A DNA stretch of 64,000 bases from an uncultured Kiritimatiellota bacterium. Lineage in GTDB: Bacteria > Verrucomicrobiota > Kiritimatiellia > RFP12 > UBA1067. The position numbers and the translations under genes were made by a program. The DNA is taken from NCBI GenBank assembly GCA_934635225.1, contig CAKTYZ010000003.1, positions 99,210 to 163,209 on the forward strand. Reading direction: 5' to 3'. The number at the start of each line of letters is the position of its first letter. Positions within the stretch are counted from its first letter, which is position 1. Shown here in pieces: positions 6,735-37,613 of this stretch. The notes under the pieces were generated by a model that ran no database searches, had not been told where the DNA came from, and saw only the letters and a list, made by a program, of their open reading frames with translations.

Positions 6735-6888
6735 GAAGCCGATTCCTTAAATGAGCGCGTATTATAACATAATTTAGCGGAAAGCGTCTTCCGTTCGTCC
6801 AAACTCAACATTCGACACGGCATCTCGGCGTCAAGATGTCCGACATTGCGGCGCCCGTCACAAAGGCGCAGGAGACGCGCTTCCCCCG

Positions 6889-8379
6889 TCAGTCCTTCTG
6901 CGGACGGTAGACGGGCGCGAGCGCGTCGTGAATGCGGCGATAGCAAGTAAAGAGATGATCGTATCGCGCCACTGCCTCAGGATCGGGTCGAATCGTGCGA
7001 TCGATATGCAGGCATTTCGCGACGGCATCCTTCACGTCCGCAAAAAGACCGATTCCCGTCCCAGCCAAGAGGCAGGCTCCAAAACTCGCGTCTCCGGGCG
7101 TCGGGACGGCAACTTCACAGTTGAAAACATTCGTGACGATCTCGCTCCAAAGCGTCGAGCGTGCGCCGCCGCCAATCAGGAAGATGCGCTTCACGGCAAG
7201 ACGCATCTCTTCCAGCGTTCGGTAGCAGTCCCTGAGCGAATAGGCGACGCCTTCCATCAACGCGCGCGAAAAGTCACCACGCGTTGAAGAGATCGAGACA
7301 CCCGTAAACGAGGCGCGCAAGTTCGAGTCCCAGTAGGGGCATCGCTCGCCCTGAAGATAGGGGTGAAAGAAGATGCCGTTCGCGCCAATCGGAGAGTTCT
7401 TCGCCTCCGCGCCCATCACTTCCCAGACGTTCCGCCCGTCAAGGGACTCTTTGTAGAAGTTGTCACGAAACCACCGCTGGCAGAGGGCCGCTGAGTTCGT
7501 CGCGCTGACCGAGTACCACATGCCCGGAACGATGTGCGAATAGGTGAGCGTCTTCGGATGCGGATGAGCCTCGGCCGTCATGGCATTGACGTTCCCCGCC
7601 GTCGCGAGCTTGATGATGAGGTCACCCGGCTCGACGGCACCCGCACCATAGTCTTCGACCGCGCTGTCGGACGAGCCACAGACAACTGGCATCCCCTCAG
7701 GAAGCCCCGTCGCGGCAGCCGCCTCAGCCGTCACGCCGCCCACGACATCCGTCGGATTCACTAGAGGCGGCAATGCAGACATCTTCAGCCCAGCAAGCGC
7801 AACCAGCTCAGGGCTCCAACACGCCTTCTTCATATCCCAGAAAAGCGTACCCTGCGCCTCGATGCCATCCGTCGCGACATGTCCTGTCAGCAGATAGCGC
7901 ACATAATCCTTCACAAAAAGGACATGCTCCGTCTTCTTGAGGACATCCGGCTCGTTCGCCTTCAGCCACATCATCTGAGGGAGCGTCCATGTCGGCGCGG
8001 GCATCTGGTAGCACGTTGAGAAGACCTTCTCGCCCCATCCCGCCTTCAACGCCGCGCATTCTGACGTCGCCCGCTGGTCCGTCCACATGATTGTCCGCCG
8101 GACGGGCTTCAATGCCGCGTCGAGCAACACGGCGTTGTGCGTCGAGCCGTCCAGCGCACAAGCCGCGACAGACTTGAGGTCAACGCCCTTCTCCGCAAGC
8201 TTCCCAAGGGATGCGCAAAGCGCCGCCCACCAATCGGACGGCGTCTGCTCGCTCCATCCCGGATGCTCGTGGAAAGTCGCAAATTCCGTTGATGCCTCGC
8301 CGACAAAACGTCCCTTCTCGTCAAGAACCGTCGTCTTACACCCACCGGTGCCGTAGTCAATGCCCAAAAGTAGTTTCAT
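6889..8379 (-). CDS. FGGY-family carbohydrate kinase (xylulokinase/glycerol-kinase-like)
   Basis: 496 aa. MKLLLGIDYGTGGCKT N-terminal FGGY motif. A C-terminal FGGY_C-like region (GGGARS..W) is present. SD AAGGGAG. Confidence 0.75.
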   Translation of the reverse strand: MKLLLGIDYGTGGCKTTVLDEKGRFVGEASTEFATFHEHPGWSEQTPSDWWAALCASLGKLAEKGVDLKSVAACALDGSTHNAVLLDAALKPVRRTIMWTDQRATSECAALKAGWGEKVFSTCYQMPAPTWTLPQMMWLKANEPDVLKKTEHVLFVKDYVRYLLTGHVATDGIEAQGTLFWDMKKACWSPELVALAGLKMSALPPLVNPTDVVGGVTAEAAAATGLPEGMPVVCGSSDSAVEDYGAGAVEPGDLIIKLATAGNVNAMTAEAHPHPKTLTYSHIVPGMWYSVSATNSAALCQRWFRDNFYKESLDGRNVWEVMGAEAKNSPIGANGIFFHPYLQGERCPYWDSNLRASFTGVSISSTRGDFSRALMEGVAYSLRDCYRTLEEMRLAVKRIFLIGGGARSTLWSEIVTNVFNCEVAVPTPGDASFGACLLAGTGIGLFADVKDAVAKCLHIDRTIRPDPEAVARYDHLFTCYRRIHDALAPVYRPQKD

Positions 8380-8391
8380 TCTGCTCCCTTT

Positions 8392-9006
8392 TTAGAACAA
8401 TTTGTCCTCAATGGCCGCACAAAGCGCATGATAAACAGGCAAATGCAGTTCCTGGACTCTGTACGTCTCCCGTTCGGGCACGCCGATCACGGCATCCGCC
8501 AGTGCTCCCAGTTGCCCTCCGCCCGCGCCTGTCAAGGCTATGACCTTCAGTCCCTTCGCATGGGCAACACGCGCGGCATTCACGCAGTTCACGCTGTTGC
8601 CGCTCGTGGAAAGAGCAATCAGCACGTCTCCCGGACAGCCAAGGCCCAAGACCTGCTGGGCAAACGCCGTCTCCCAGGAAACGTCATTGGCAAACGCCGT
8701 CAGGATCCCGCACATCGACACGAGCGAAACCGCCGGCAGAGACCCTTCGAGCCGACCGACGAGATCCGACGGCAGATGCGCCGCAAGGTCCGGCGGAATG
8801 CTGCGGCGCTTGCGGAACTTCTTCAGGAGTTCGCCCACGATGTGGTCGGAATCCGACGCGCTCCCGCCATTTCCACAGGTCAACACCTTGCGCCCTGAGC
8901 GAAAACACGTCAACAAAAGATCAAAGGCTTTGACGATCTCGCCTTGACAAACTGCCAACTGCGGATAGCGTTCAATGAGCTCGGAGAGGGTATCGTCCAT
9001 AAGCAT
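8392..9006 (-). CDS. SIS-domain sugar-phosphate isomerase (GmhA / phosphoheptose isomerase-like)
   Basis: 204 aa. VLTCGNGGSASDSDH and LIALSTSGNS are SIS / GmhA motifs. Confidence 0.7.
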   Translation of the reverse strand: MLMDDTLSELIERYPQLAVCQGEIVKAFDLLLTCFRSGRKVLTCGNGGSASDSDHIVGELLKKFRKRRSIPPDLAAHLPSDLVGRLEGSLPAVSLVSMCGILTAFANDVSWETAFAQQVLGLGCPGDVLIALSTSGNSVNCVNAARVAHAKGLKVIALTGAGGGQLGALADAVIGVPERETYRVQELHLPVYHALCAAIEDKLF

Positions 9007-9008
9007 GC

Positions 9009-9941
9009 TTATTTCTCCAGATTTGCCACGGCAAGCGCCGCATAATCACCGATGTTCTCCGAAAGTCCCGCCGGGACGATCCGACAGACTTGGCGGGCAA
9101 GCGGCAACGCCTCCCGTTCAAGAATCGGCTGCACCTCGCGCAAGAAACGCGCGGACTGACGCATGAAGACACCGCCCAAAACAATCATTTCAGGATTAAG
9201 AACGTCAATCACATACGCGAGAATCATTCCAAGATGCGCAGCCGATTCCCTGAAGACTTCCGTACAGAACGCATCACCTGCATCCATACGAAGAAACAGT
9301 TCCTTTGCGCTGAAGCCCTCCGGCAAGTCAAGCCCCTTCTCTTGCGCCCGAATCCGCGCGAGCTTCGCCATCCCCGCGCCTGAACAGAACCCCTCGGCGC
9401 TGCCGGCCTTGTTGTAGCCAACTGGCCCCGTCGGCGCGAGGCGAATGTGCCCGATTTCGCCGGCATTGTCGTTCGTGCCGGCATAAAGCCGTCCATTCAG
9501 GATGAGACCCGCCCCAAGCCCTGTTCCAAACGTCATGAACACCATGTTTCGCGTGCCTCGTCCCGCACCGAACTTCCATTCCGCGTATGCGCAGGCATTC
9601 GCGTCATTTTGGAGATGGACCGGGACCGTGTAGCGATCCGCAAAGAACTGCACGACAGGCACCTCGTCCCAACCCGGCAGGTTCGGCGGGGAGAGGATGA
9701 CACCGCGCGCCGAGTCCAACGGTCCGCCGCAGGAGACCCCGACGTTCGCAATCCGATGCGCCGCGCCCGCAAAGTAGGCGTCAATCCGCTGACGAAACGA
9801 CTCCAGGACCGTCTGCCACGCAAGTCCTGCCGTCGGGAACTCCTCACGGTGCAGAATCTTCACCGAATCCGTCGTACAGTCGCCGATGGACAACGCGCAC
9901 TTCGTTCCTCCAATGTCTACGCCAACAGATACGTCGCTCAT
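9009..9941 (-). CDS. ROK-family sugar kinase (glucokinase / N-acetylglucosamine kinase-like)
   Basis: 310 aa. VGVDIGGTK, then a GAGLGAGLIL-type Gly-rich loop and the ROK Cys/His cluster region. Confidence 0.8.
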   Translation of the reverse strand: MSDVSVGVDIGGTKCALSIGDCTTDSVKILHREEFPTAGLAWQTVLESFRQRIDAYFAGAAHRIANVGVSCGGPLDSARGVILSPPNLPGWDEVPVVQFFADRYTVPVHLQNDANACAYAEWKFGAGRGTRNMVFMTFGTGLGAGLILNGRLYAGTNDNAGEIGHIRLAPTGPVGYNKAGSAEGFCSGAGMAKLARIRAQEKGLDLPEGFSAKELFLRMDAGDAFCTEVFRESAAHLGMILAYVIDVLNPEMIVLGGVFMRQSARFLREVQPILEREALPLARQVCRIVPAGLSENIGDYAALAVANLEK

Positions 9942-26739: not shown

Positions 26740-26790
26740 GTAGTATAGCATCCTCGCCGCGCCAAGGTCCACTACTCAAATGAGTAGTGC
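26740..26790 (-). promoter_or_regulatory. conserved 30-bp palindrome-containing motif plus TATACTAC -10 box (copy 2 of 3) upstream of the GH116 gene
   Basis: On the minus strand: GCACTACTCATTTGAGTAGTGGACCTTGGC, 13 nt, TATACTAC, 8 nt, ATG(26731). The 30-mer is identical at 35972-36001 and 42472-42501. Confidence 0.55.
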
Positions 26791-28151
26791 GTCGTCTGCG
26801 CGGCAGTTGGTGCTTGGACTACTGACCCGACAGTTCGCGCGTCGGAGACCGTGTCCATCGTCTTTGACAACGAACACAGCAAACTCATCCAATCCGGGAT
26901 GTAGTCACCCGCTCCTTCGATTCTAATCACATTCTCCACCTTGCCAGAAATCTCCGGGAGAGAAGACAGCGTGCCGACGATGATGACCTGCTCGGCGTCC
27001 AGCCTCAGATCCATTCGCTTCGGCGAAAGCCAGATCGTCTTTTGCCGTCCCCTTCGTCCGGCATCGTCCGCCTCTCCACAGACAACAACGACCTCCGCCT
27101 CGTCTAGGATTTGCCGTGCGTCTTGCACAATCACAAATGAAGCCGTCGGGAAACCTGTCAAGAACTCGCGTATTTCTCGCGGATACATTTCACCGCCAAG
27201 AACTTTTGAATCCGGCACAAGCCAGAACAATGGGTTCGTTCGCCCAACTTGGATGCCGTAATTTCGCTTCCTGATCAGCGGCGAACCGTCTTCGCCCTGC
27301 AATACAAGTGCCGCACTCGCCACACATCCAAGAAATCCCGTCAGGCCAATTCCCCAAAACAGTGCAAGTCTCAAAAAACTCCACCGCAGAGAAACAAGCA
27401 CACAAACAAGCGTCATTAAAGGAATTACCCACAAACACCAACTTTCACAGACCGAACTAAACAGAGCCGCCACAAAAAGTGCAACCCATTCCGCCCAGCA
27501 CAGCCAAGCTCCCTGCCGACGTCCGACAATAAAACCAAATGGCAGTACAACACTCCACCCCAACAGCCAGACAACGCCTCCGACAATGCCCGTTTCGACA
27601 ATCCACGTCAAGTGGCTGTTAACCAGAGTCCGATAGCGTTCCTTGCGATCCAAAGGCTGATACCACTGCATATAAGCCTCGCCTGAGTTCCCGATCCCCC
27701 AGCCGAACGGTGCGTCCAACATCATACGAGGTGCTGTCTGCCAAAGTTCAAGACGATTGCCGACAGAGCGATCTTCACGCAAGAACTCAGGTGCCAATCG
27801 TCCGACAACCCCCATCTGAATGGACAGCAGGCAGAACCCCACCACAACCGTCAAGAGGCTCGCCTTGACAAGCGTTCTCATGCTTTTCATGCGACGCAAA
27901 ACCACAAGTGCCAATGGAACAGAGGCAACTGCCAGTGCAACAATTCCACCTCGTGAGAACGTGTGCAGAAGAATGTACAGAGAACCCACAGCAAGCGCAG
28001 CTCCAAGAATACGGGCAAATCGACGAGCGGAACATGCCAAAGCCAATCCGATCAGAACCAGTTCGACAGCCAACACAGCCAGCTTGTTCGGATTGTCGAA
28101 CCCGAACTGCCAACGCACAATGCCATTGTAAAAGAAAGAGGCCAACAGCAT
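26772..28151 (-). CDS. O-antigen ligase / Wzy_C-family polytopic membrane protein
   Basis: 459 aa with multiple TM helices. Periplasmic-loop motif FGWGIGNSGEAYMQWYQ...RTLVNSHLTWIVETGIVGG matches the Wzy_C / WaaL signature (GxGxGN ... HNsyL..ETG). The last 6 codons run into the 30-bp motif. Confidence 0.55.
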   Translation of the reverse strand: MLLASFFYNGIVRWQFGFDNPNKLAVLAVELVLIGLALACSARRFARILGAALAVGSLYILLHTFSRGGIVALAVASVPLALVVLRRMKSMRTLVKASLLTVVVGFCLLSIQMGVVGRLAPEFLREDRSVGNRLELWQTAPRMMLDAPFGWGIGNSGEAYMQWYQPLDRKERYRTLVNSHLTWIVETGIVGGVVWLLGWSVVLPFGFIVGRRQGAWLCWAEWVALFVAALFSSVCESWCLWVIPLMTLVCVLVSLRWSFLRLALFWGIGLTGFLGCVASAALVLQGEDGSPLIRKRNYGIQVGRTNPLFWLVPDSKVLGGEMYPREIREFLTGFPTASFVIVQDARQILDEAEVVVVCGEADDAGRRGRQKTIWLSPKRMDLRLDAEQVIIVGTLSSLPEISGKVENVIRIEGAGDYIPDWMSLLCSLSKTMDTVSDARTVGSVVQAPTAAQTTHYSFE

Positions 28152-28157
28152 ATGCGA

Positions 28158-29861
28158 TTACTCGGCCTTCCACAATTCCGCTATCGGGCGGCTGGGCAGC
28201 ATCACGCGATAGGCATCGGGAATCTCATCGCCTTGCGCACGTGCGACACAGCGCAGATTCACAACATCACCAACCAGCGGAGCCGAATCAAATAACGTGC
28301 GCCAATTGACCGCTGCCGAACGCCGCGTTCTGTCTAGCGCCAACTGAAACACGGCCCGTCCCAACCGTTCTGCCGCGCCACACCCCGAATGGCCAAGCCC
28401 CGGATAGGCTCGATAGAGAATCGGGTATTCCTTATCTTTAGCCGCCTTGAAGAACGCAAGGGAGCGTTCGTAACCACATTCATTCTCACCCGTCGTGAGG
28501 CACCAGAGGATAGATGCGCCTCCGCTCGTCGGCTCATCGAAACTGCTTGGAATGTGAATGTGAACGGCCAAAAACCGCTCAGGCTTGCGCAAGGCCAGAC
28601 GCTGTGCATACTGCGCGGCGCCCGAATACCCCCAAAGCAAAAACCGCACATCAGGAATTCTTTCTTCCCGGACAAGACCATCTACACACTTTGACCACGC
28701 TTCAGAAACCTGATCAAACGCACGATCTGCCGTGCGCGCCTCTTGTCGCGTGAGATCCGTCCAGTTCTTGCGCGGATTCCACAGATGCCGCGCGGAGCCC
28801 CAGGCGACGACTGCAAGCTTGTTGCTCTCGGCAAAGGCGACCATGCGCCCGACCTCAGAGGCAATATTCCCCGTGACAATCTTCGCAGGGATGTCGTCCG
28901 GACTGTTCGCAAGCAGGCTCAGGCAAAGCACGCCTCGCGGGATCTCGTTTCTTCGTGTGCGCAGAAAGACTGTCAGGACAGGCTGAGCCGTCGGCTTTGC
29001 CCTCATAGTCCGACGGAGAATTTCAATCTTGTCGCGCCTCGTCAAGCTTCGCCAACGCAGCAACAACTCTTCCGACGGAAGCCAAAACGAATTGACGTCC
29101 TCCGCTTTTGGTAGACGATTCCCTCGTGTGCCCGTGATGGCATTCGCCCAAACGCCCCCTTCTGCACGGCGACGTCCTTGCAGTTTTAAGATCTCAAGAA
29201 AATAGGCTCGCACAAAATCTTCTAAAACCGCACTACGACTGTGACCAAGCCCCGGAACATCCACCCATGTCCACCGTCGAGCGGCTGCGCGCCCATCATG
29301 AAAGTGCGACAGGCAAGTACCATAACGAAAATCTTCCGTTCCGCAGGCTACAATGCCCGGCGGCCTTTCGCCCCCAATCTGCGACAGACCCTGCCACCAA
29401 CCAGCGGAAGCTGCGCACCACGCCGTGACACGTGAAGGGAACTGTTCAGCGAAACTTGCGGCAAAATGCGCGCCGCCGGAAAACCCGTAAACAAACAGCG
29501 GCAACCGTCCCAATCCGACGGAATCAAGAAACGTCAACAATTTCAGGCCGGATCCTGACCGCGCATCGTAGTAGCCATGTCCCTGTTTCAAATCCGCAAC
29601 AGGGGAACGGAAGGTGACGGCAACCAGTGCTATCGCGTTTGACTGCGCGAACGAAACCCACGCCTTTTCTTTGAGATACACCGAGGCATCGCCATTTGCG
29701 CCCGCAAGCACCACCATGACCGCGCGACAATTCTTCACCTCGCAGACAGGATGGATCAGTGCCTCGAAATGCACTTCTTGCGGCTGATCCTCCGCACGGA
29801 TCGTCACACAGAAGATTGCCGCAAACGCGGACACGAGCAACATGAAAGACGCAGGCTTCAT
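28158..29861 (-). CDS. secreted tandem alpha/beta-hydrolase (two esterase domains)
   Basis: 567 aa with a signal peptide. Two nucleophile elbows, GFSGGA and GYSGAAQ (GxSxG), each followed by a His near the domain end (GLGHS.. twice). Confidence 0.55.
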   Translation of the reverse strand: MKPASFMLLVSAFAAIFCVTIRAEDQPQEVHFEALIHPVCEVKNCRAVMVVLAGANGDASVYLKEKAWVSFAQSNAIALVAVTFRSPVADLKQGHGYYDARSGSGLKLLTFLDSVGLGRLPLFVYGFSGGAHFAASFAEQFPSRVTAWCAASAGWWQGLSQIGGERPPGIVACGTEDFRYGTCLSHFHDGRAAARRWTWVDVPGLGHSRSAVLEDFVRAYFLEILKLQGRRRAEGGVWANAITGTRGNRLPKAEDVNSFWLPSEELLLRWRSLTRRDKIEILRRTMRAKPTAQPVLTVFLRTRRNEIPRGVLCLSLLANSPDDIPAKIVTGNIASEVGRMVAFAESNKLAVVAWGSARHLWNPRKNWTDLTRQEARTADRAFDQVSEAWSKCVDGLVREERIPDVRFLLWGYSGAAQYAQRLALRKPERFLAVHIHIPSSFDEPTSGGASILWCLTTGENECGYERSLAFFKAAKDKEYPILYRAYPGLGHSGCGAAERLGRAVFQLALDRTRRSAAVNWRTLFDSAPLVGDVVNLRCVARAQGDEIPDAYRVMLPSRPIAELWKAE

Positions 29862-32170
29862 TTTCTCAGGACAAGATCCGGTGCATAGATGATGTTATCC
29901 TCGCTTTTCGGAAGTTCAGGCTGAACCTCTCTGGTCACAAGTTCCCGCGTCCGCCTATCCAGCAAGTTCCGCTTGCTTCGCAAAAGCGCAATCACCTCCC
30001 TGACCGGTTTGGCGTTCCGCTCGGAGATCAACTTGACTTCAGTCCGCGTCCCATCCGTTGTCTCAGACGAAAACGTGTCGGCTCCTTCATACAGGCCACC
30101 TGAACGCATCTCGCCGAAATCGCCACGCGAGAAATAGGACATGAGCGAATGAACCCTGACCGGCGGAAGGTGTTCAAACCGATACCGCCCCGCACTGTCG
30201 GTTTTCGTCCACCGTTCAGGATACGTCACAAGTTCAAGTCCTGGCAAGAAAGTCCCCTTGATCCGAACGCCGCCCTGCGGACGTCCACGCTCATCGACAA
30301 CTCGCCCCGAAACAGTGACCATCATGGACGCGGGGAACACCTCAACGGCAAGATGCACGTCATTCGATCCCTTTGTAAAACGTCCGTCAGGCAGAATCCG
30401 AAAACGCAAGCCATCAAGACGCTCCATGAGCAGCACGTTCTGCTGATCGACTCTCCAGTCTCCCGGTTCAAGATCCACTCCACGCTCCTTGATGCAATCG
30501 ATTTCCAGATGATGTGCCTGTCCACCAGATCCAACGACATCAATCCCATACTTCTCTGTTGGCGGAGGACACATTCGTTCGTAAAACCGCGCCAACGCCA
30601 CAGACATCTTTTCGGGCGTATCCGCAACTTTCAATTCCGCCAAATCAAACGCCGTCACGTCGGGATGCACAACGAACCCATAGAAACTCGTATTTCGAGC
30701 CGCCTCCCTGGTCACTTCCTCCTGAGTCTTAATCTGCGGCTCAGGCCGTTTGACTCCTTTCTTCACATCTTCATGCCATTTCACGAACTCTTCCGCGTTT
30801 GGGACAAAGCGATTGACAATCTTGCCATTTCGTACGCTGGCAACCTGTTTTCCTGTTGACGTATACAGGTAGTCGCAATCGCTCTTCTCGTCTCCGCCGC
30901 TCCGAGTCCGCAACAGTCTTCCATTCTTGACGTCAAACCAGAACTCGACAGAAAGACCTGTTTTTGGCATGATTTTGCAATAGGTCAAGCGACCTGTTTC
31001 CATGTATCGGCTCTCGGTTGTCGTGCCGGATTTCCGATCCGTCTCCAGCGTCATGGACAACGCGCCCTTTTCGTCATAGGCGTATTCAGTCCGACTGCCA
31101 TATCCCTGCGAATATGTCGTTTCCAGCCATCGCTTCTTGCCGCGAAGATTCTTGCCCGATGTGAACACGCGCCAGACACGCCGACATTCTTTCCGTTCGC
31201 TGACTCTCATGCCCGTTTCGAGATTCGCGTACTCCTCCTCCGTCTCGCCATCTGGTCGCTTGCGGAGAATGTGCGCATTTCGCCGCTTCGCATCGACTTT
31301 CGTGATGACATAAGTCCAGTCGTTCAGCGAAAGGATCTGCCGCGTCCCTAAGTCATACGCATAGTTCCGCTCTCCATCCGAGAAAGTCGCCCGCCCTTTC
31401 TTTGCCAAGCCATGGACAATCCGATACGTCCGTCCGCCAGACTTCAACTGGACAACGGACATCCGCTCTTTCTGAAGCCCCCACTGTCCATTCGCATTCA
31501 GACCTCCGACACGCACGGGTGCCAAAAGGACTTCAGCCCTTCCGCCATCCGTAAACGCAATCGTCCGCATTTGGCCGCTCTCCCTGCCGCCCGTTTCCAT
31601 CCGGCACAAGACCTTGCCGCCACAGACCATCTGCTCGAAAGTCCCGTCCGCCGAATAGCGGAACTCGACCGACAGCCCTCGCGTGTTCATTCTCACGAGC
31701 CGACCGTTCCTGAAAACGAGGTCGGGGAGCTTCTTCTCCAATCGCCAATAGAAGCGAGTCTCGCCGCCGTTCGTCACGCAACCGGAACCACGGCGTCCGC
31801 GCCACAGGTTCGGGCGTTCCTCCTTCCTGAGCCAGAACTTCCGCACAATTCCGTCCGGGCTGTGCATCACAAGACAGTCCCGACTGACAGGATAGATTCG
31901 CGACTCAAACCAGGGGATGCGCCAACCGTAGCCCAGAGTCGTCTTGCCACTCGGCTCTTCGGACGACCAGTAGGCATAGACCGTGCATTTCTTCGGCCCG
32001 AACGACAACGTACCCAACGGATATTCGGCGATTGCGTGACCAATGGCATCCGTCCCCTCAATTGCACTGTCCGCCAACGCCGCTCCACTGTGGAGCGGCA
32101 TCCTCATCCGCCCACCCTGCGACACACAGCCGACGCAAGCAAAACCAACGGCTAAGACAATGCGTTTCAT
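29858..32170 (-). CDS. lipoprotein with C-terminal CarboxypepD_reg-like (transthyretin-fold) domain and conserved ..NIIYAPDLVLRK tail (paralog 1)
   Basis: 770 aa. Lipobox LAVGFACVGC. Near the C-terminus VTVSGRVVDERGRPQGGVRIKG..YRF is a CarboxypepD_reg-like beta-sandwich. The tail is shared with 32177-33094 and 33559-34482. Confidence 0.4.
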   Translation of the reverse strand: MKRIVLAVGFACVGCVSQGGRMRMPLHSGAALADSAIEGTDAIGHAIAEYPLGTLSFGPKKCTVYAYWSSEEPSGKTTLGYGWRIPWFESRIYPVSRDCLVMHSPDGIVRKFWLRKEERPNLWRGRRGSGCVTNGGETRFYWRLEKKLPDLVFRNGRLVRMNTRGLSVEFRYSADGTFEQMVCGGKVLCRMETGGRESGQMRTIAFTDGGRAEVLLAPVRVGGLNANGQWGLQKERMSVVQLKSGGRTYRIVHGLAKKGRATFSDGERNYAYDLGTRQILSLNDWTYVITKVDAKRRNAHILRKRPDGETEEEYANLETGMRVSERKECRRVWRVFTSGKNLRGKKRWLETTYSQGYGSRTEYAYDEKGALSMTLETDRKSGTTTESRYMETGRLTYCKIMPKTGLSVEFWFDVKNGRLLRTRSGGDEKSDCDYLYTSTGKQVASVRNGKIVNRFVPNAEEFVKWHEDVKKGVKRPEPQIKTQEEVTREAARNTSFYGFVVHPDVTAFDLAELKVADTPEKMSVALARFYERMCPPPTEKYGIDVVGSGGQAHHLEIDCIKERGVDLEPGDWRVDQQNVLLMERLDGLRFRILPDGRFTKGSNDVHLAVEVFPASMMVTVSGRVVDERGRPQGGVRIKGTFLPGLELVTYPERWTKTDSAGRYRFEHLPPVRVHSLMSYFSRGDFGEMRSGGLYEGADTFSSETTDGTRTEVKLISERNAKPVREVIALLRSKRNLLDRRTRELVTREVQPELPKSEDNIIYAPDLVLRK

Positions 32171-32176
32171 CTATAT

Positions 32177-33094
32177 TTACGGCAAGGCGATATCTGGCAC
32201 ATAGATAACGTTGTTCGTGCTCACGGGAAATCCTCTAATTGGCGCTTTCAGAGGATAAGGCTTTCCTTTCTTTCTCTCATAGGCAGACACGATTCTCTCT
32301 GCAGATGTCCTCAGGGACGCTGTAAGTGTCAAGACTTCAACTTCTTTCACCTGTAGGTCTCGCTCAATCCCCTCTCGAATCCCTATACGTACGGAAAGAG
32401 GGGAATCCTCAAAACACGTTCGTCTCAACATATTCGTATTCGCCATAAAGACCGCCGCATCATTCAACGACGGCAATCTTAACCCCTCACAACTCCAATA
32501 GCCATCTTGTCTTGACACTGTGAACATTGCGGAGACTTTTTTCAGATTCTCATTCTCTGAATATGGAAATTGCATAATTTCAATTTGTCTCCCCGCAACG
32601 GGATTCCCATTCTTGTCTACGCAGCGTCCCTGTAGTGTCAGATTTTCTCGGTACAATTCCACGTAACAACTTTTTTCTAAAGGCATCTTTGATGCCATCC
32701 CAAAGTAGCGAATCTCCTTATCTTTTATAATCTCCACAAAGTCTGCAACAACCCAATACATTGAAGAGGATACGTCTGGCATTACGATGGAGAACCATCC
32801 TTTCTGATCGGAACTTCCCCTCGCAACAACTTTGCCATCGGGAAACGACAGAACTTGCACATTGGCGGAAACCACACGACGACGAAAGCCATTTCTCTTT
32901 GAGAATCGTTTTTGAGCCTCATTCTCAATAACAACTCGCAAGGACTCCTCGGCCGATTGGTCGTATGCGGCTGCAATCTCATTTGCCGTCAACTCATCGA
33001 CTCGCCATACTTCACCTTCTATCTTTGTTGCGCGACAGATGTAGACACCACAAAAAAGCAACATCATCGTAACACAAAATTTTTTAAAAAGCAT
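32177..33094 (-). CDS. lipoprotein, CarboxypepD_reg-like domain, conserved ..FPVSTNNVIYVPDIALP tail (paralog 2)
   Basis: 305 aa. Signal/lipobox MLFKKFCVTMMLLFCGVYIC. LQGRCVDKNGNPVAGRQIEI motif. Lower-GC DNA. Confidence 0.4.
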   Translation of the reverse strand: MLFKKFCVTMMLLFCGVYICRATKIEGEVWRVDELTANEIAAAYDQSAEESLRVVIENEAQKRFSKRNGFRRRVVSANVQVLSFPDGKVVARGSSDQKGWFSIVMPDVSSSMYWVVADFVEIIKDKEIRYFGMASKMPLEKSCYVELYRENLTLQGRCVDKNGNPVAGRQIEIMQFPYSENENLKKVSAMFTVSRQDGYWSCEGLRLPSLNDAAVFMANTNMLRRTCFEDSPLSVRIGIREGIERDLQVKEVEVLTLTASLRTSAERIVSAYERKKGKPYPLKAPIRGFPVSTNNVIYVPDIALP

Positions 33095-33111
33095 ATCACA
33101 TACTTCCTAAT

Positions 33112-33543
33112 TTATTCAACAGTATCACCTTGTAAACAAGCATCAGATGCTTCGCAGACATCTTCTGTTCCGCACGAATCATTCTCACGACACAGATCTT
33201 CTTCTTCACATCTATCTTGAAGACAGGGCTCATCACCAGCAGGCATTGACAGAAGGCAAGAATCTGCATTTGCACGACCACCAGGACAATCATCGGAATA
33301 CTTCAGTTCTGGTAAACAAACGTCTTCCGTGTCTCGACCACCTGGGCAGGTGTCGGATTCTTCACTCTCTGAGGTTGCTGGTTGACAGAAGTCCTGGCTG
33401 TGTCCACCTCCAGGACAGAGAGGTGGCAGAAATGGAGAATCTGTCGCCAGCACTGTGTCCGTGAAGGTAAAGTGTGCGAATCCACCAGCCATCAAAATTT
33501 GAAAAAGTCGATGCGCGAACTGACGACAAGAGATATTCTGCAT
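33112..33543 (-). CDS. Cys/Asp-rich repeat peptide (candidate RiPP precursor or secreted metal-binding peptide)
   Basis: 143 aa (start uncertain). Three D-x-C-P-G-G repeats (LCPGGGHSQDFC, DTCPGGRDTEDVC, DDCPGGRANADSC), then five hexads DRCEEE DLCREN DSCGTE DVCEAS DACLQG D, i.e. (DxCxxx)5, which is CxxxD spacing. Fifteen nt downstream of a gene and 17 nt upstream of the next one in the same operon as a radical-SAM/SPASM gene. Confidence 0.45.
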   Translation of the reverse strand: MQNISCRQFAHRLFQILMAGGFAHFTFTDTVLATDSPFLPPLCPGGGHSQDFCQPATSESEESDTCPGGRDTEDVCLPELKYSDDCPGGRANADSCLLSMPAGDEPCLQDRCEEEDLCRENDSCGTEDVCEASDACLQGDTVE

Positions 33544-33558
33544 TGTAAGTATTCCTTT

Positions 33559-34482
33559 TTATTGCAGAACCAGATCCGGCACATAGATGACATTGTTCGT
33601 GCTGACTGGAAAATTCGTCATCGGATTCAAACGTTTCATTTTCTTCCCCGATTTACGTTCCGTGGCGGCAATGGTCTTTTCTACCGCCCTGTGGTTCTCA
33701 TCCGTGACATTGGGGACAACCCGTTCAGCATCATATGAACCAAAAGGTTTGCGCCGCGCATATATCCCCAATTGCAAAGGATAGTGACTGACCTGCCAAT
33801 TGTCCACGATATTCGTATAACAGATGTAGGACATCAAAGGGATGATCGGAGGAGAGGCAAGCCCGTCTACACGCCATCTTCCAAGCGTATCCGTCACCGC
33901 CAGTTGTGTTGGACAAAGACGGCATTCCTCCTCCGTTTCTCCAGACGTAATCGGATGCACATAAACAAAAACGCCCTGTGCCGGAGTACCGTCTTTCTGC
34001 ACACACCTTCCCATTGCTGAAGCATATGAACGCATCATGGTTATGTTCGCTTCATAATATGCCGCATTACGCCTCTTATATGTCCGGGACACCCCAACAT
34101 ACAAGACAGGTCTACCAAACTCCTCACGGACAACCTTACTATAGGCTCGCCATAACGAATCTTTCCCAGGCATTACAACAGAATAATTTCCATCCTGATC
34201 GACCTTTCCGCGACCAACAACCTTGAAGTCGGGAAGCGTCTGTATCTCAACCGTCGCACCAACGGGAATGGTCATATATTTGATGCCTTGAGCATTTTGT
34301 CGCTCCATGATTTGCCGTGCGGCAAGTTCAGGGATACGTGCACCCGTTGTCGCATATTCCTCAGCGACTTCCGCAATGCTCGGCGTCGCCTCAAGTCGCA
34401 CCCAGCCCTTGACAACATCTCCACTTGCATTTACAGCAACTAATAAAGATGCAACCGTTCCCATCAATTTCCGTGCTTTCAT
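33559..34482 (-). CDS. secreted protein, CarboxypepD_reg-like domain, conserved ..FPVSTNNVIYVPDLVLQ tail (paralog 3)
   Basis: 308 aa. The ORF track fuses this with the upstream radical-SAM reading frame. The real start MKARKLMGTVASLLVAVNA (ATG 34482) lies 13 nt after the radical-SAM stop. AMGRCVQKDGTPAQG motif. Confidence 0.45.
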   Translation of the reverse strand: MKARKLMGTVASLLVAVNASGDVVKGWVRLEATPSIAEVAEEYATTGARIPELAARQIMERQNAQGIKYMTIPVGATVEIQTLPDFKVVGRGKVDQDGNYSVVMPGKDSLWRAYSKVVREEFGRPVLYVGVSRTYKRRNAAYYEANITMMRSYASAMGRCVQKDGTPAQGVFVYVHPITSGETEEECRLCPTQLAVTDTLGRWRVDGLASPPIIPLMSYICYTNIVDNWQVSHYPLQLGIYARRKPFGSYDAERVVPNVTDENHRAVEKTIAATERKSGKKMKRLNPMTNFPVSTNNVIYVPDLVLQ

Positions 34483-34495
34483 GATTCTATTCCTT

Positions 34496-35610
34496 TCATT
34501 GTTTTGCGTACAAGGACGCAAACCATGCCTCCTGCATAATCCAACGTTTTGAATCCTCACAATTCCGCTCAGACAGGGCAAATGTTCCGTCCGGACGAGC
34601 GACCTCCCACGGGCATGGGCCTTTGCAAAACGGGTAGGCCCAGCATCCGAAGCAATGTCCTTTGACAAGCTCGCGATACTTACGCCAAAACGTCTGACAC
34701 TTTTCAACGTCAGGGCCATCCAAGACAGATCCAACAACCCAGTTCTCCATGCCGACAAAACGGTGACATGGATAGGGCGTTCCGTTCGCCCCGACCGTCG
34801 TCGTCCCGCGACAGGCGCCGCATCGAAAGGGTGAAATCGGCTCTGCCTCCAGTTTCTTCGCGCCATCAGCCTTTTGATTCCTGCAACGGCCAGATCAAAC
34901 GACCCCGTTCCCGTGCGCGTCGGGCACTGCCCGTCATGGCGTTCCTTCGGCCCGTCCAGACTGACCATCAGACCAAAGTTGTATCTCTTGATGACAGAGA
35001 TCACGTCATCGTCAATGAGCGTTCCATTCGTCGTCATCGAATAGAACACCTTCTTGCCATGAAGCTTCGCCAACCGCTGACTGTATGCCACCGCGAACAG
35101 CAAGACCTTCTTGTTCATCAGCGGCTCACCACCAAAGAACGTGATCCCAACCTCCTTTGAACGTCCGCTGACGGCGAACAGCCAGTTGATGGCCGCACGG
35201 GCAATCGTCTCGCTCATTCGGCCTTGATTTGGCACTTCATCGCGACACGTCCCGCAATAGCAATACCGACACGCGAGATTGCAGACCTCTGATAGGGCAA
35301 GCTCTAATTTTGTCCACGGAGCCTCATAGCGAAGTCGCAACAGTCGATCAAATTCCGCATCCGTCGGAATCGGCTGTTCACACGGCTCAAAAAAGCCCGA
35401 CTCCTCCAAGGCTGATATTTCACGCCTCAACCCTTCGTTCTCAGGCGACGCCTGTTCACCTGCCGCTCGCCGTTCCAAATGGGACTTTGCTTCTTGCGAG
35501 ATTTTCAACGGGCGTTTCAGCCCCCTATGCGCGACGAACGAATCGCCCTGATATGAAAAGACATGATAGGGAACTTCCTCAAGAATCCGTTCCATAAATT
35601 CAACCTCCAT
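34496..35610 (-). pseudogene. radical SAM / SPASM-domain enzyme (peptide-maturase-like) with an apparent frameshift near 34850-34895 and a shortened core; possibly a pseudogene or assembly indel
   Basis: Frame A carries ..LELALSEVCNLACRYCYCG (CX3CX2C), GITFFGGEPLM and SLDGPKERHDGQCPTRTGTGSFDLAVAGIKRLMA (an anSME/SPASM-subfamily block). It then becomes Arg-rich nonsense. Frame +2 opens at 34894 and reads KKLEAEPISPFRCGACRG..(x14)..C ... KGHCFGCWAYPFCKGPC ... C, i.e. SPASM CX2CX5CX3C clusters, ending at 34496. There are about 110 aa ahead of the CX3CX2C, which could be an RRE-type N-domain. The core-to-SPASM spacing looks about 50-90 aa shorter than in anSME/PqqE-type enzymes. Confidence 0.55.
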
Positions 35611-35971
35611 ATGCTCGCGCCAACACTCCAACTGAAGACGAGAACCACACAGATATCGCCACATATGCAATAACATGGAAAAGTATACCTTATTTTCATT
35701 TGGCTTGTCAATCATGCGACCATGACAAATTAGAAACCACGACAGTAGATGCAAGTCTCCGCAGGTGTGGCATCGCGCGGAGGGGCGGGAAGTGGCGCGA
35801 GTGAGGAGCGAGGGTTTGCAGACGTCGAAGGGGTCTCGCCCGCAGCCCGTGGTCTCGCCGAGGCATGGCAGGCTGAAGCCGGACGGTTGTCTTCAGAAAG
35901 AAGCGCAACCCCGAACGATGAGACCGAGCGAACAGCTTCCCGCTCCGACGCGCGCACTGTCAAGCCGACAT

Positions 35972-36038
35972 GCCAAGGTCCACTACTCAAATGAGTAGTG
36001 CCGCGCACGACATCAACAACGCCACAGTTTGGTATACT
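35972..36038 (+). promoter_or_regulatory. conserved 30-bp motif (copy 1 of 3) plus TATACTAC -10 box upstream of the sensor-kinase gene (near-leaderless start)
   Basis: Plus strand: GCCAAGGTCCACTACTCAAATGAGTAGTGC (35972-36001), 31 nt, TATACT (36033-36038), 7 nt, ATG 36046. The motif orientation is inverted relative to the two minus-strand copies. The same motif could also serve the divergent radical-SAM operon. Confidence 0.5.
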
Positions 36039-36045
36039 ACACGCC

Positions 36046-36978
36046 ATGAGACGATGCGTTTACCTTCTGCTGGCCGGCCTCGCGCTGTTGCCGTCCGCCC
36101 TGCTGTCGGCGCCGCCCGAGCTGACAGGCGTCGGCGGCGACGGACGCCTCGACGCCGACAGCGTCTTCGTGCGGTCACCGTGGTGGCTACACACGGAACT
36201 CCTCGTCATCATCGGCGTCCTGCTCGTCGTCCTCGTCGCCGTGAGCGCCTGGAACCGCTCGATCCGCATCGTCGCCCGGCGGCAGGCGCACCGGCTCGCA
36301 GAAGAGGCGCGGCGGCTCGCGCAGGAAGAGACCGCCCATGCGCGCACGCGGCTGAAGGTCGAGGAGCGCACCGAGCTGGCCGTCGAGATCCACGACTCCG
36401 TCTCGCAGGCCCTGACCGGCATCGCCCTCCAGCTCGAAGCCGCCCTCGCCACCAGTCGGCAAGACCCCGCGCGCGCGGAAAAAAGCCTCATGACGGCGAG
36501 TCAGATGCTGGCCTCCTGCCGGCATGAACTGCGCGGCTGCCTCTGGGACCTCCGCACGCGCACCTTCGAGGAGCGCGACCTGACCGAAGCCCTCGTCCAG
36601 ACGCTCGCCCCGCATCTCAAGGACGTCCGCGCGCACGTGCGCTTCAACGTCTCGCGCAACCGCCTGTCCGAAAGCACGACACACGCGATCCTCAAGATCG
36701 TGCGCGAGCTGACGGTCAACGCCATCCGGCACGGACGAGCCACGACCCTCCGCATCGCCGGCGAAATGTCCGACGGTGCCATCCAGTTCTCCGTCACAGA
36801 CAACGGCTGCGGGTTCGATGCGGCGACCGCACCAGGCCCGCGGGACGGGCATTTCGGCCTGCAGGGAATTCGCGAACGTCTCCGCAAATGCAAGGGCACG
36901 CTGACCTTCGATTCCGGCCCGTCCGGGACGCGCGTCGCCGTCACGATGCCGCAGGACCTCGAAGAGGAGGATCCATGA
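36046..36978 (+). CDS. sensor histidine kinase, NarL/LuxR-partner type (HisKA_3 + HATPase_c)
   Basis: Signal/TM segment, second TM, then EIHDSVSQALTGI (HisKA_3 H-box) and the N/G boxes (NAIRHG, DNGCGF, GLQGIRER). Stop overlaps the response-regulator start (ATGA). Confidence 0.8.
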   Translation: MRRCVYLLLAGLALLPSALLSAPPELTGVGGDGRLDADSVFVRSPWWLHTELLVIIGVLLVVLVAVSAWNRSIRIVARRQAHRLAEEARRLAQEETAHARTRLKVEERTELAVEIHDSVSQALTGIALQLEAALATSRQDPARAEKSLMTASQMLASCRHELRGCLWDLRTRTFEERDLTEALVQTLAPHLKDVRAHVRFNVSRNRLSESTTHAILKIVRELTVNAIRHGRATTLRIAGEMSDGAIQFSVTDNGCGFDAATAPGPRDGHFGLQGIRERLRKCKGTLTFDSGPSGTRVAVTMPQDLEEEDP

Positions 36979-37613
36979 GCCCCTCCGCCGCGCCAAAGAA
37001 AATCCGCATCCTGCTGGCGGACGACCACCTGATCGTCCGCATGGGCCTCGCCACCATCATCGCCCTCGAACCAGACCTGGAGATCGTCGGCGAGGCTGAA
37101 GACGGCTCCGAGGCCGTCCGCCTCGCAGACGCACTCGCGCCAGACGTCATCGTGATGGACATCATGATGCCGAACGTGGACGGGGCGGAGGCGACACGGC
37201 AGATCCTGTCTCGGCATCCGACGGCGAAGATCCTGTTGCTGACAACGTTCAGCAAGGCGGCGGAGATTCGCACTGCCCTCGGACACGGCGCACGCGGCGC
37301 CCTGCTGAAAGACGCCTCCCGACGGACGTTCGTCGAAGCCATCCGCCGTACGGTGGACGGACGACAGACGATCAGCCCTGAAATCGAACGCGAGATCGTG
37401 CTGGCCCAAAGCCTTCCGCCGCTCTCCGTTCGGCAGAAGACGATCCTCGGCTATGTCGCCAAGGGCTTCAGCAACCGGGAAATCGCGCGATTCGAGAACA
37501 TTTCCGTTGACGGTGTCCGTGCGCACCTGAAGACCATCTTCGCGCGTCTCGGAGTCGCCTCCAGAACGGAAGCGGCAACGACAGCCCTCGAGCTGAAACT
37601 GATCGACGCTTAA
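36975..37613 (+). CDS. NarL/LuxR-family response regulator
   Basis: KIRILLADDHLIVRMGL receiver domain with the phospho-acceptor Asp context VIVMDIMMP, and a C-terminal LuxR HTH (LSVRQKTILGYVAKGFSNREIA). Confidence 0.85.
   Translation: MSPSAAPKKIRILLADDHLIVRMGLATIIALEPDLEIVGEAEDGSEAVRLADALAPDVIVMDIMMPNVDGAEATRQILSRHPTAKILLLTTFSKAAEIRTALGHGARGALLKDASRRTFVEAIRRTVDGRQTISPEIEREIVLAQSLPPLSVRQKTILGYVAKGFSNREIARFENISVDGVRAHLKTIFARLGVASRTEAATTALELKLIDA

Follow-up and report, generated by a model that had tools for sequence, protein, structure and literature searches.

The 64-kb window analysed here, a stretch of DNA from an uncultured Kiritimatiellota bacterium, carries on its minus strand an open reading frame (ORF; 33543->33112) for a Cys/Asp-repeat protein of 143 aa, and close to it the remains of a gene for a radical S-adenosylmethionine (SAM) enzyme with a SPASM domain, a putative peptide maturase. 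An earlier note, made from the sequence alone, had drawn attention to the repeats of this protein, and its translation matches ours exactly. We favour, with some but limited confidence, the reading that the ORF is an eroded yet genuine member of a D-x-C-repeat protein family, that intact systems of this family are thioether-linked by a dedicated radical SAM/SPASM enzyme, and that the locus in the window is decaying. The features that bear most directly on this reading are the following (positions are those of the window):

33112..33543, minus strand: Cys/Asp-repeat ORF of 143 aa, in all likelihood a chimeric and shortened family member (translation, motif statistics, homologs P0001-P0003 and P0124-P0156, chimera mapping)
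33445..33543, minus strand: signal/leader region, residues 1-33, with a degenerate I-S-C-R-Q-F, a hydrophobic region containing G-G-F-A-H-F-T-F and a V-L-A cleavage-like site (homolog alignments; TAT_signal matches on family members)
33256..33417, minus strand: decad-type region, Cys43-Cys96, with C-P-G-G / D-x-C modules 10-13 residues apart (ORF translation; family spacing mode of 10)
33124..33225, minus strand: C-terminal hexad region, Cys107-Asp140, with one C-x2-D and five C-x3-D units, then a T-V-E end (translation; residues 91-143 equal the C-terminus of P0129)
33281..33294, minus strand: recombination junction at the codons for D-D-C-P-G, with GATGAxTGTCCTGG (encoding D-[DE]-C-P-G) common to both parents, a 14-nt overlap (blastn and junction sequences)
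34852..35610, minus strand: 5' fragment of the probable maturase pseudogene, with a leader-binding-like N-terminal region and CNLACRYC, equivalent to residues 17-258 of the intact enzyme (Pfam Radical_SAM/Fer4_12, NCBIfam, tblastn against L001/L010)
34496..34858, minus strand: 3' fragment of the same gene, with the SPASM domain in another frame, equivalent to residues 345-463 of the intact enzyme (frame translation, NCBIfam SPASM/PapB 241-319, tblastn)

The 143-aa protein contains 13 Cys, 12 of them after residue 40, and the Cys-Cys spacings of this core are 10, 13, 10, 10, 10, 11, 5, 6, 6, 6 and 6. According to the earlier note every Cys past about residue 40 has an acidic residue two positions upstream. 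This holds for 11 of the 12, a count not attained in any of 100,000 shuffles of residues 41-143, and it fails for the first CPGG Cys, which reads P-L-C; at Cys107 the residue in question is Glu, not Asp. Likewise, two of the three D-x-C-P-G-G units that had been listed are present as such, while the first is P-L-C-P-G-G and lacks Asp at -2. The C-terminal hexads are as described: the last five Cys (112-136) and the segment Asp110-Asp140 are strictly hexad-periodic over 31 residues. As Tandem Repeats Finder detects no DNA tandem repeats in the ORF, this periodicity is held at the protein level. A purine-rich AAGGAA, which resembles a Shine-Dalgarno sequence, lies 8 nt 5' of the ATG.

The Asp-x-Cys-repeat family and its N-terminal element

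We regard it as nearly certain that the 143-aa ORF belongs to a rare and uncurated family of Asp-x-Cys (D-x-C) repeat proteins with a twin-arginine N-terminus. A direct search with the peptide finds three relatives only (P0001-P0003); at the locus of the one with 56% identity, an intact 470-aa maturase gene is followed by a 309-aa gene and then by a Cys-rich gene. An exhaustive profile search of 1.84 billion representatives gives 153 clusters at E <= 1e-3, of which 89 also pass E <= 1e-10; four long proteins from this search (P0206, P0213, P0245, P0278) turned out to be unrelated compositional matches (mucin-like, EGF-like, HYR/FG-GAP) and were set aside. Long family members have 232-450 aa and 13-37 Cys, nearly all of them in D-x-C context, and short members are Cys peptides of 87-117 aa with an RR/RK signal. 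One member of the short type (L020, 8149-8493) has a low-complexity (K-D)n insert (KDKDKDKD...) between signal and Cys core. The earlier note had considered that the repeats might prove to be non-conserved or out of frame in homologs; the homologs keep them, in frame.

The publicly available names of the family proteins are all "hypothetical protein". Pfam and NCBIfam scans of the window peptide and of full-length, short and Chloroflexota members return no family beyond weak matches to signals of the twin-arginine translocation (Tat) pathway, the window peptide itself having no Pfam match at E <= 0.01, and a sequence search of the PDB with the family profile yields no match at E <= 10. AlphaFold2, run on the 403-aa P0125 with a 25-sequence alignment, gives a mean predicted local distance difference test (pLDDT) value of 38 and a predicted template modelling (pTM) score of 0.18, with the signal helix as the only predicted element. 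The model predicts a repeat region without an autonomous fold, as in the coil-rich QhpC (PMC7876137).

Among the 1,358 Cys of 51 long members, 95% have Asp at -2 (Glu 1%; background Asp 15%), and there is a preference for Pro at +1 and +2 and for Gly at +3. The Cys-Cys spacing in the same proteins has its mode at 10 (587 cases), with a minority at 6 (46 cases), and the distance between successive D-x-C units ranges from 5 to >20. Since Asp at -2 is this prevalent, the spacing peaks at 10 and acidic residues are not enriched at +4, the conserved unit is D-x-C arranged in decads. The C-terminal hexads are a contracted form, also present in L010, L013/L015, L026 and P0129; as a defining C-x3-D motif of the family they were ruled out by the same spacing and +4 statistics.

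At the N-terminus, homologs read SRRQF, SRRHF, SRRAF, TRRKF or DRREFLK. The window leader reads S-C-R-Q-F and so departs from the twin-arginine S/T-R-R-x-F-L-K-type motif: the first Arg of the pair, nearly invariant across the family alignment, is Cys in this copy. CR in place of RR is seen in the window, L008 and L009, and both parental cassette types (see below) carry RR. Downstream of the RR pair an element G-x-[FL]-[AS]-[HN]-F-x-[FL] is conserved across phyla, in long and short subtypes alike. As this conservation goes beyond what a signal peptide needs, the element may double as a leader recognized by the maturase. The hydrophobic N-terminus had been taken for either a Sec signal or the leader of a ribosomally synthesized peptide with post-translational modifications (RiPP); it appears to be neither a plain Sec signal nor a leader alone, being twin-arginine signal-like in homologs and accompanied by the conserved element. 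L036 scores above the cutoff of the Tat model TIGR01409 (22.0 bits vs 16.7), and L027, L041 and P0229 stay just under that of PF10518 (18.2-21.9 bits vs 22.7). Judged by such motifs and model scores, export of the family through the Tat pathway is reasonably probable. The C-termini differ between lineages. Chloroflexota members end in a hydrophobic helix with basic residues, resembling a membrane anchor, and members from the Planctomycetes-Verrucomicrobia-Chlamydiae (PVC) superphylum almost always end in D-x-x-E-COOH, with Glu in 25 of 25 aligned sequences (e.g. window 33115-33126; L010 13525-13536). The esterase-like and Wzy_C-like products of genes that occur in the PVC loci only might act on this D-x-x-E C-terminus.

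The linked radical SAM/SPASM maturase

Orthologs of the maturase occur in Kiritimatiellia, Verrucomicrobiota (including Akkermansia muciniphila), Planctomycetota and Lentisphaerota, and enzymes of about 40% identity also in Chloroflexota. To describe their surroundings we used species-representative genomes, with 30 loci whose maturase is >= 38% identical and, as controls, 50 loci with radical SAM enzymes <= 33% identical. A long D-x-C protein is encoded immediately downstream on the same strand in 17 of the 30 loci, and a short RR/RK-signal Cys peptide (87-117 aa) takes the same position in nine. Three loci end at a contig edge (L028, L042, L043), and the sole true absence is L030, where the substrate gene is lost and the maturase gutted. 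Thus a homologous or analogous RR-signal Cys peptide follows the maturase ortholog in 26 of 27 evaluable loci, but a D-x-C or RR-peptide ORF lies beside none of the more distant radical SAM enzymes (0/50). In Chloroflexota, the enzyme and the D-x-C protein are the only consistently shared pair. We consider it likely that the two are enzyme and substrate. For the earlier note, a clear Sec signal together with no co-occurring maturase would have pointed to a plain secreted metal-binding protein; in the window, the radical SAM/SPASM gene lies two genes upstream of the ORF. Through the linkage seen in the orthologous loci the RiPP-like interpretation of that note is supported at the level of the family; the truncated and chimeric nature of the ORF, the decad unit and the maturase pseudogene had escaped it.

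An intact ortholog (L010) was compared with the curated cutoffs of the related NCBIfam models. It scores 253.3 bits with PapB (NF047865; cutoff 340), 214 with the nif11-type model (518.7), 204.8 with SCIFF (TIGR03974; 425), 198.7 with QhpD (TIGR03906; 453) and 111.2 with anSME (TIGR03942; 349). Because these scores are under all cutoffs, the enzyme falls into a new branch of the thioether-forming SPASM maturases, outside every curated equivalog. The closest solved structure is CteB (5WGG, 3e-43), with anSME at 1e-22. The orthologs carry CxxxCxxC and the complete 7-Cys SPASM motif (C-x9-G-x4-C ... C-x2-C-x5-C-x3-C ... C) in one frame. Some 100 further residues at the N-terminus align with the N-terminal parts of the nif11, CcpM and QhpD maturases. 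Arg372 of PapB has been reported to be essential (PMC9413430); its position corresponds to the motif P-C-H-R-F in the Paenibacillus homolog L059, and the Arg is invariant in the maturase family described here. The radical SAM pieces of the window match nif11-type, PapB, CcpM, QhpD and SCIFF best among the NCBIfam models, not sulfatase maturases, and the two fragments score 142.7 and 67.5 bits with the PapB model.

Some of the loci show irregularities of their own. The Kiritimatiellae contig L012/L014 (JAQUEX010000012.1) has two D-x-C substrate genes (coordinates noted: 5880-6992, 8181-8492, 8512-9660). The gene caller had overlooked the first of them, which comes directly behind the maturase gene; in front of the second sits an isolated 103-aa fragment of a SPASM C-terminus, which implies a duplication of a module made up of the maturase 3' end and the substrate gene. 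In some Akkermansia assemblies (A. muciniphila records WP_343020252.1/WP_343020253.1 and WP_343015470.1/WP_343015471.1) the annotation splits maturase and substrate into two partial proteins each, on one contig, which could reflect gene decay or assembly and frameshift artefacts.

Decay of the cassette in the window and its neighbouring genes

Relative to the 470-471 aa maturase genes of the closest intact relatives (L094, L096, L010), the window copy lacks residues 259-344 (~86 codons) and carries a frameshift; its two halves meet at about 34852-34859. The radical SAM and SPASM motifs are both still present, but they are split by this lesion. Since three or more independent contigs from gut metagenomes (L002, L003, L006) share the lesion, it is not an assembly error. 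There is little doubt in our view that the window maturase is a pseudogene. A different deletion, with a frameshift and centred on residues 174-236, affects L026 (8836-10015), and L030 (2326-3225) shows an in-frame loss of residues 204-364 together with the absence of a substrate gene. Three different maturase deletions in related gut lineages suggest that the trait was lost repeatedly and independently.

The substrate gene has been altered as well. Intact relatives carry one of two cassettes: in type 1 (L096, L010) the radical SAM gene is followed by geneA, a Cys-rich protein gene of about 400 codons and onward, and in type 2 (L094) by a Cys-rich protein gene of 390 codons, geneB and onward. 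By blastn, window 34859-33281 matches type-1 L096 at 87% (91% over the 5' part of the peptide gene), and window 33294-27016 matches type-2 L094 at 95% (98% over its 3' part). Accordingly, the 143-aa ORF resembles P0125 in residues 1 to ~88 and matches the C-terminus of P0129 without a difference in residues 91-143, and about 250 repeat residues are missing relative to the ~390-400-aa proteins. With high confidence we therefore take the ORF to be a chimeric truncation, of type 1 in residues 1-~88 and of type 2 in residues ~84-143; an unequal crossover between type-1 and type-2 cassettes would have shortened the gene in this way. Further damage is seen in close relatives. In contigs of the same species (96-99% nucleotide identity; L002-L007) another 6.3 kb are deleted (window 27041-33322), so that the peptide gene is missing its 3' part and the Wzy_C gene most of its length, and geneB and the genes for the 770-aa and 567-aa proteins are gone. 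The P0001 allele has a PGG deletion. As encoded, the window peptide offers 12 Cys/acid pairs, which are probably no longer matured by this locus, and we think it fairly probable that the 143-aa product has lost its function. Since the cassette has been dismantled repeatedly (three independent maturase deletions, the repeat-mediated chimera and the 6.3-kb deletion), the trait appears to be dispensable in this lineage of gut Kiritimatiellia. In this reading the window copy is what remains, in a state of decay, of an undescribed system.

The other genes and features of the cassette are these:

33559..34482, minus strand: geneA, a 307-aa secreted CarboxypepD_reg-like protein that ends in NNVIYVPDLVLQ; type-1 cassette gene (ortholog in L096/L010)
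32177..33094, minus strand: geneB, a 305-aa paralog of geneA that ends in NNVIYVPDIALP; type-2 cassette gene (ortholog in L094, 95% nucleotide identity across the region)
29858..32170, minus strand: 770-aa protein with an N-terminal beta-rich domain and a CarboxypepD_reg-like C-terminus that ends in NIIYAPDLVLRK
28158..29861, minus strand: 567-aa protein with two GxSxG esterase-like halves (GFSGG / GFSGGAHF; GYSGA / GYSGAAQYA)
26772..28151, minus strand: Wzy_C (O-antigen-ligase-like) membrane protein, last gene of the conserved PVC cassette (Pfam PF04932, 1.9e-17)
35682..35711, minus strand: promoter-like TTGACA-18-TATACT (11/12; consensus match only), which may be the promoter of the operon, some 70 nt upstream of the start of the maturase gene

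From the 143-aa ORF through Wzy_C the genes are tightly packed and all on the minus strand. A mechanical ORF call of 731 aa (35754->33559) in this region is a composite of the radical SAM part, the SPASM part in another frame and the separate geneA; for annotation, it is an artefact that fuses the maturase pseudogene with a separate gene. GeneA and geneB products are 30% identical. The beta-rich domain of the 770-aa protein is a separate gene of about 420 codons in other loci, and the halves of the 567-aa protein are separate genes (~290 aa and ~490 aa) in Akkermansia and Kiritimatiellae loci; the 567-aa protein has no match in Pfam and only a weak polyhydroxyalkanoate (PHA)-depolymerase-like match in NCBIfam. 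The position of the Wzy_C gene is conserved in L010-L013, L094 and L096. Promoter-like sites such as the one listed are not more frequent than expected from shuffled sequences. The cassette stretch (~27-36 kb) has a G+C content of 47-58% between flanks of 63-69%, and this lower-GC island is consistent with a mosaic, recombining history of the cassette. The CarboxypepD_reg-like proteins share a C-terminal [NG]-N-[VIT]-I-[YF]-[VA]-P-D-[LI]-[VA]-L, often followed by K-K (window 33559-33600, 32177-32220 and 29858-29900; L012 7021-7965 and 9690-10619), a possible signal for sorting or strand complementation. Genes for a HisKA_3 histidine kinase and a LuxR-type response regulator (window 35998-37613, plus strand) lie directly upstream of the cassette and divergent from it, and the pair could regulate the cassette.

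Thioether register, alternative explanations and known systems

The direction of the bonds made by related enzymes suggests how Cys and Asp may be paired in the intact proteins. PapB requires Cys N-terminal to Asp and does not process a transposed D-x3-C peptide (PMC9413430), and the known bond Cys41-Asp49 of QhpC runs in the same Cys-before-Asp direction (PMC7876137). We therefore tested on the family the register that joins Cys(i) to the following Asp. Asp is missing from -2 of the first core Cys in 52 of 78 members (67%), compared to 67 of 2,017 internal Cys (3.3%), and in 72 of the 78 (92%) the last Cys has a lone Asp after it, usually inside the PVC C-terminal D-x-x-E. A deficit at the first Cys together with a lone terminal Asp is the boundary pattern to be expected if Cys(i) pairs with the next Asp, and it supports, though it does not prove, a chain of consecutive Cys-to-Asp rings. 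The window peptide fits at both ends, with P-L-C at Cys43 and Asp140 after Cys136. On the strength of these patterns we lean slightly towards Cys-Asp thioether chemistry in the family; pairing of each Cys with the following Asp is a serious candidate that we rate just short of probable.

In the mechanism that we propose, the maturase would bind the RRxF ... G-x-[FL]-[AS]-[HN]-F-x-[FL] element in the cytoplasm and, by means of a 5'-deoxyadenosyl radical and its auxiliary Fe-S clusters, would form a bond between the sulfur of each Cys and a side-chain carbon of the Asp that comes next, two residues ahead of the following Cys. The product would be a string of consecutive thioether rings, mostly C-x7-D, with C-x3-D in C-terminal hexads. 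The Tat pathway would then export the cross-linked, otherwise unstructured acidic protein. In the envelope of PVC bacteria the CarboxypepD_reg-like, esterase-like and Wzy_C-like proteins encoded alongside may act on it, and in Chloroflexota it may be held by its own C-terminal membrane anchor.

Several observations weigh against this reading. Thioether formation, its partners and its register are all deduced from patterns in the sequences. Only 67% of the members comply with the first-Cys rule, and the dominant C-x7-D spacing lies just beyond the range of n = 0-6 shown for PapB; acidic residues at Cys +4 amount to 14% family-wide, which is no enrichment, so that the C-x3-D of PapB is not the rule here. 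As to export, neither Tat signal model (TIGR01409, PF10518) matches the window peptide or PVC members, and the Akkermansia family protein has R-G instead of R-R. As to decay, L026 retains an intact 355-aa substrate despite its broken maturase, a second maturase could lie elsewhere in the genome beyond the 64-kb window, and the 143-aa ORF could still function, being intact, in frame and provided with a plausible ribosome-binding site, with natural short members existing.

These last points lead to the alternative of a short variant that still functions: a different radical SAM/SPASM enzyme, encoded elsewhere in the genome, would mature the 143-aa protein in trans, or the protein would be active without modification. 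It has kept its leader element, 12 D/E-x-C-type sites and the D-x-x-E C-terminus in an uninterrupted ORF, the operon is tight and has the AAGGAA sequence, the crossover is exactly in frame, and relatives of 90-117 aa occur naturally. Yet several independent assemblies show the dedicated maturase with its deletion and frameshift, Cys has replaced the nearly invariant first Arg of RR, alleles of the same species bear the further lesions described above (the PGG deletion in P0001; 6.3 kb in L002-L007), and the 64-kb window holds no second maturase or D-x-C gene, so we consider a functional short variant unlikely. The earlier note had also suggested a 44-aa precursor starting at Met100 (MPAGDEPC...). 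There is indeed an in-frame ATG at 33246, but no sequence resembling a ribosome-binding site precedes it, L-L-S-M-P-A-G-D-E-P-C lies inside a longer stretch of the full-length, 390-aa P0129 and reads on in frame there, and the product would be without the conserved leader; we discount this start almost entirely.

At the level of the family, the D-x-C proteins might instead be secreted acidic metal- or Ca-binding or disulfide-rich envelope proteins, with the neighbouring radical SAM enzyme acting on something else. D-x-C-P is also found in the Ca-binding thrombospondin (TSP) type-3 repeats, the content of Asp, Glu, Cys, Gly and Pro is high, a signal peptide is present, and the PVC cassette also encodes envelope-type Wzy_C and CarboxypepD_reg-like proteins. 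However, there is no match to TSP_3 (PF02412) or to any other Pfam or NCBIfam family even at E <= 1 (Pfam: six long members and the 90-aa L023), and such a function leaves unexplained the strict same-strand linkage to the maturase across five phyla. The D-x-C protein is the only consistently shared neighbour in Chloroflexota, the substrate gene was lost along with the gutting of the maturase in L030, the leader element is conserved far past the needs of a signal peptide, and the maturase falls in a clade of thioether-forming peptide maturases. A plain binding or disulfide-rich protein is thus improbable. The substrate could also be correct and the chemistry or register different, with Asp linked to its own Cys within D-x-C (compare ranthipeptide motifs with an upstream acceptor) or with some other Cys/Asp modification. 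Such a link would suit the invariance of D-x-C next to the variable distance between units (5 to >20), and in one third of the members the first Cys does come with an Asp at -2; but it explains neither the first-Cys deficit (67% vs 3.3%) nor the terminal lone Asp (92%), and PapB fails on transposed Asp...Cys peptides (PMC9413430). We judge it to be quite unlikely.

Returning to the preferred reading of a thioether-linked D-x-C family, the system works most like PapB/PapA and QhpD/QhpC, but fails the membership tests of each curated family. Compared with the known substrates, at about 50-110 aa and 3-6 sites, the D-x-C proteins are larger and richer in sites, and in PVC bacteria they come with a conserved cassette of envelope-type genes. 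In PapA/PapB, the source of the ranthipeptide freyrasin, Cys sulfur is linked to Asp C-beta in C-x3-D. Of the curated families PapB gives the intact maturase its highest score, the enzyme has kept the radical SAM motif, the full SPASM motif and the Arg at the Arg372 position, and the window hexads amount to five in-line C-x3-D units; PapA-like precursors from Paenibacillus (L059, L060) have six C-x3-D motifs with D-x-C links between them. The differences are considerable: the substrates here have 250-450 aa and 13-37 sites as opposed to ~50 aa and six sites in PapA, C-x7-D dominates behind a twin-arginine N-terminus instead of C-x3-D behind a short leader, and the taxa are PVC and Chloroflexota instead of Firmicutes. 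QhpD, a radical SAM/SPASM enzyme, makes several Cys-to-Asp/Glu thioethers in the cytoplasm on QhpC, a leader-bearing, coil-rich protein that passes to the periplasm afterwards (PMC7876137). The QhpD model ranks high among the matches of the intact maturase, below cutoff, but the neighbours here are CarboxypepD_reg-like, esterase-like and Wzy_C genes, with no qhpA/B/E/F/G and no cysteine tryptophylquinone (CTQ) Trp context; QhpC has three links and is exported by an ATP-binding cassette (ABC) transporter after leader cleavage, whereas 13-37 links and a Tat-type signal are predicted for the family described here. CteB/CteA (thermocellin) and SCIFF systems likewise have thioether-forming SPASM maturases with an N-terminal peptide-binding domain, but SCIFF precursors have ~45 aa and six Cys and no signal peptide, and SCIFF maturases link Cys to Thr, not Asp. 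anSME resembles the system in concept, being a SPASM radical SAM enzyme that modifies a signal-peptide-bearing protein in the cytoplasm before export; its similarity is much weaker, and there is neither a C/S-x-P-x-R motif nor a sulfatase neighbour here.

In the literature on radical SAM, SPASM and ranthipeptide systems, of which our coverage was incomplete, we found no description of one combined with twin-arginine signals or PVC taxa. Tentatively, and as a possibility that we would not yet call probable, we propose that the intact systems produce undescribed protein-scale ranthipeptides: unstructured acidic proteins of 250-450 aa in PVC bacteria and Chloroflexota, with ~13-37 Cys-to-next-Asp rings set by a single enzyme, one element serving as leader and Tat signal, and a final place as envelope component, with processing or attachment in PVC bacteria by the esterase-like and Wzy_C-like proteins. 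As the pair of A. muciniphila has named accessions (WP_215428393.1 and WP_215428394.1), the hypothesis is directly testable. If true, it would extend radical SAM thioether linking from small antimicrobial-type peptides and the three-link QhpC to whole exported proteins with dozens of links, and leader recognition of the RiPP kind would be joined to export by the Tat pathway. The PVC superphylum, and with it A. muciniphila, a gut bacterium studied in medicine, would gain a new component of the envelope.

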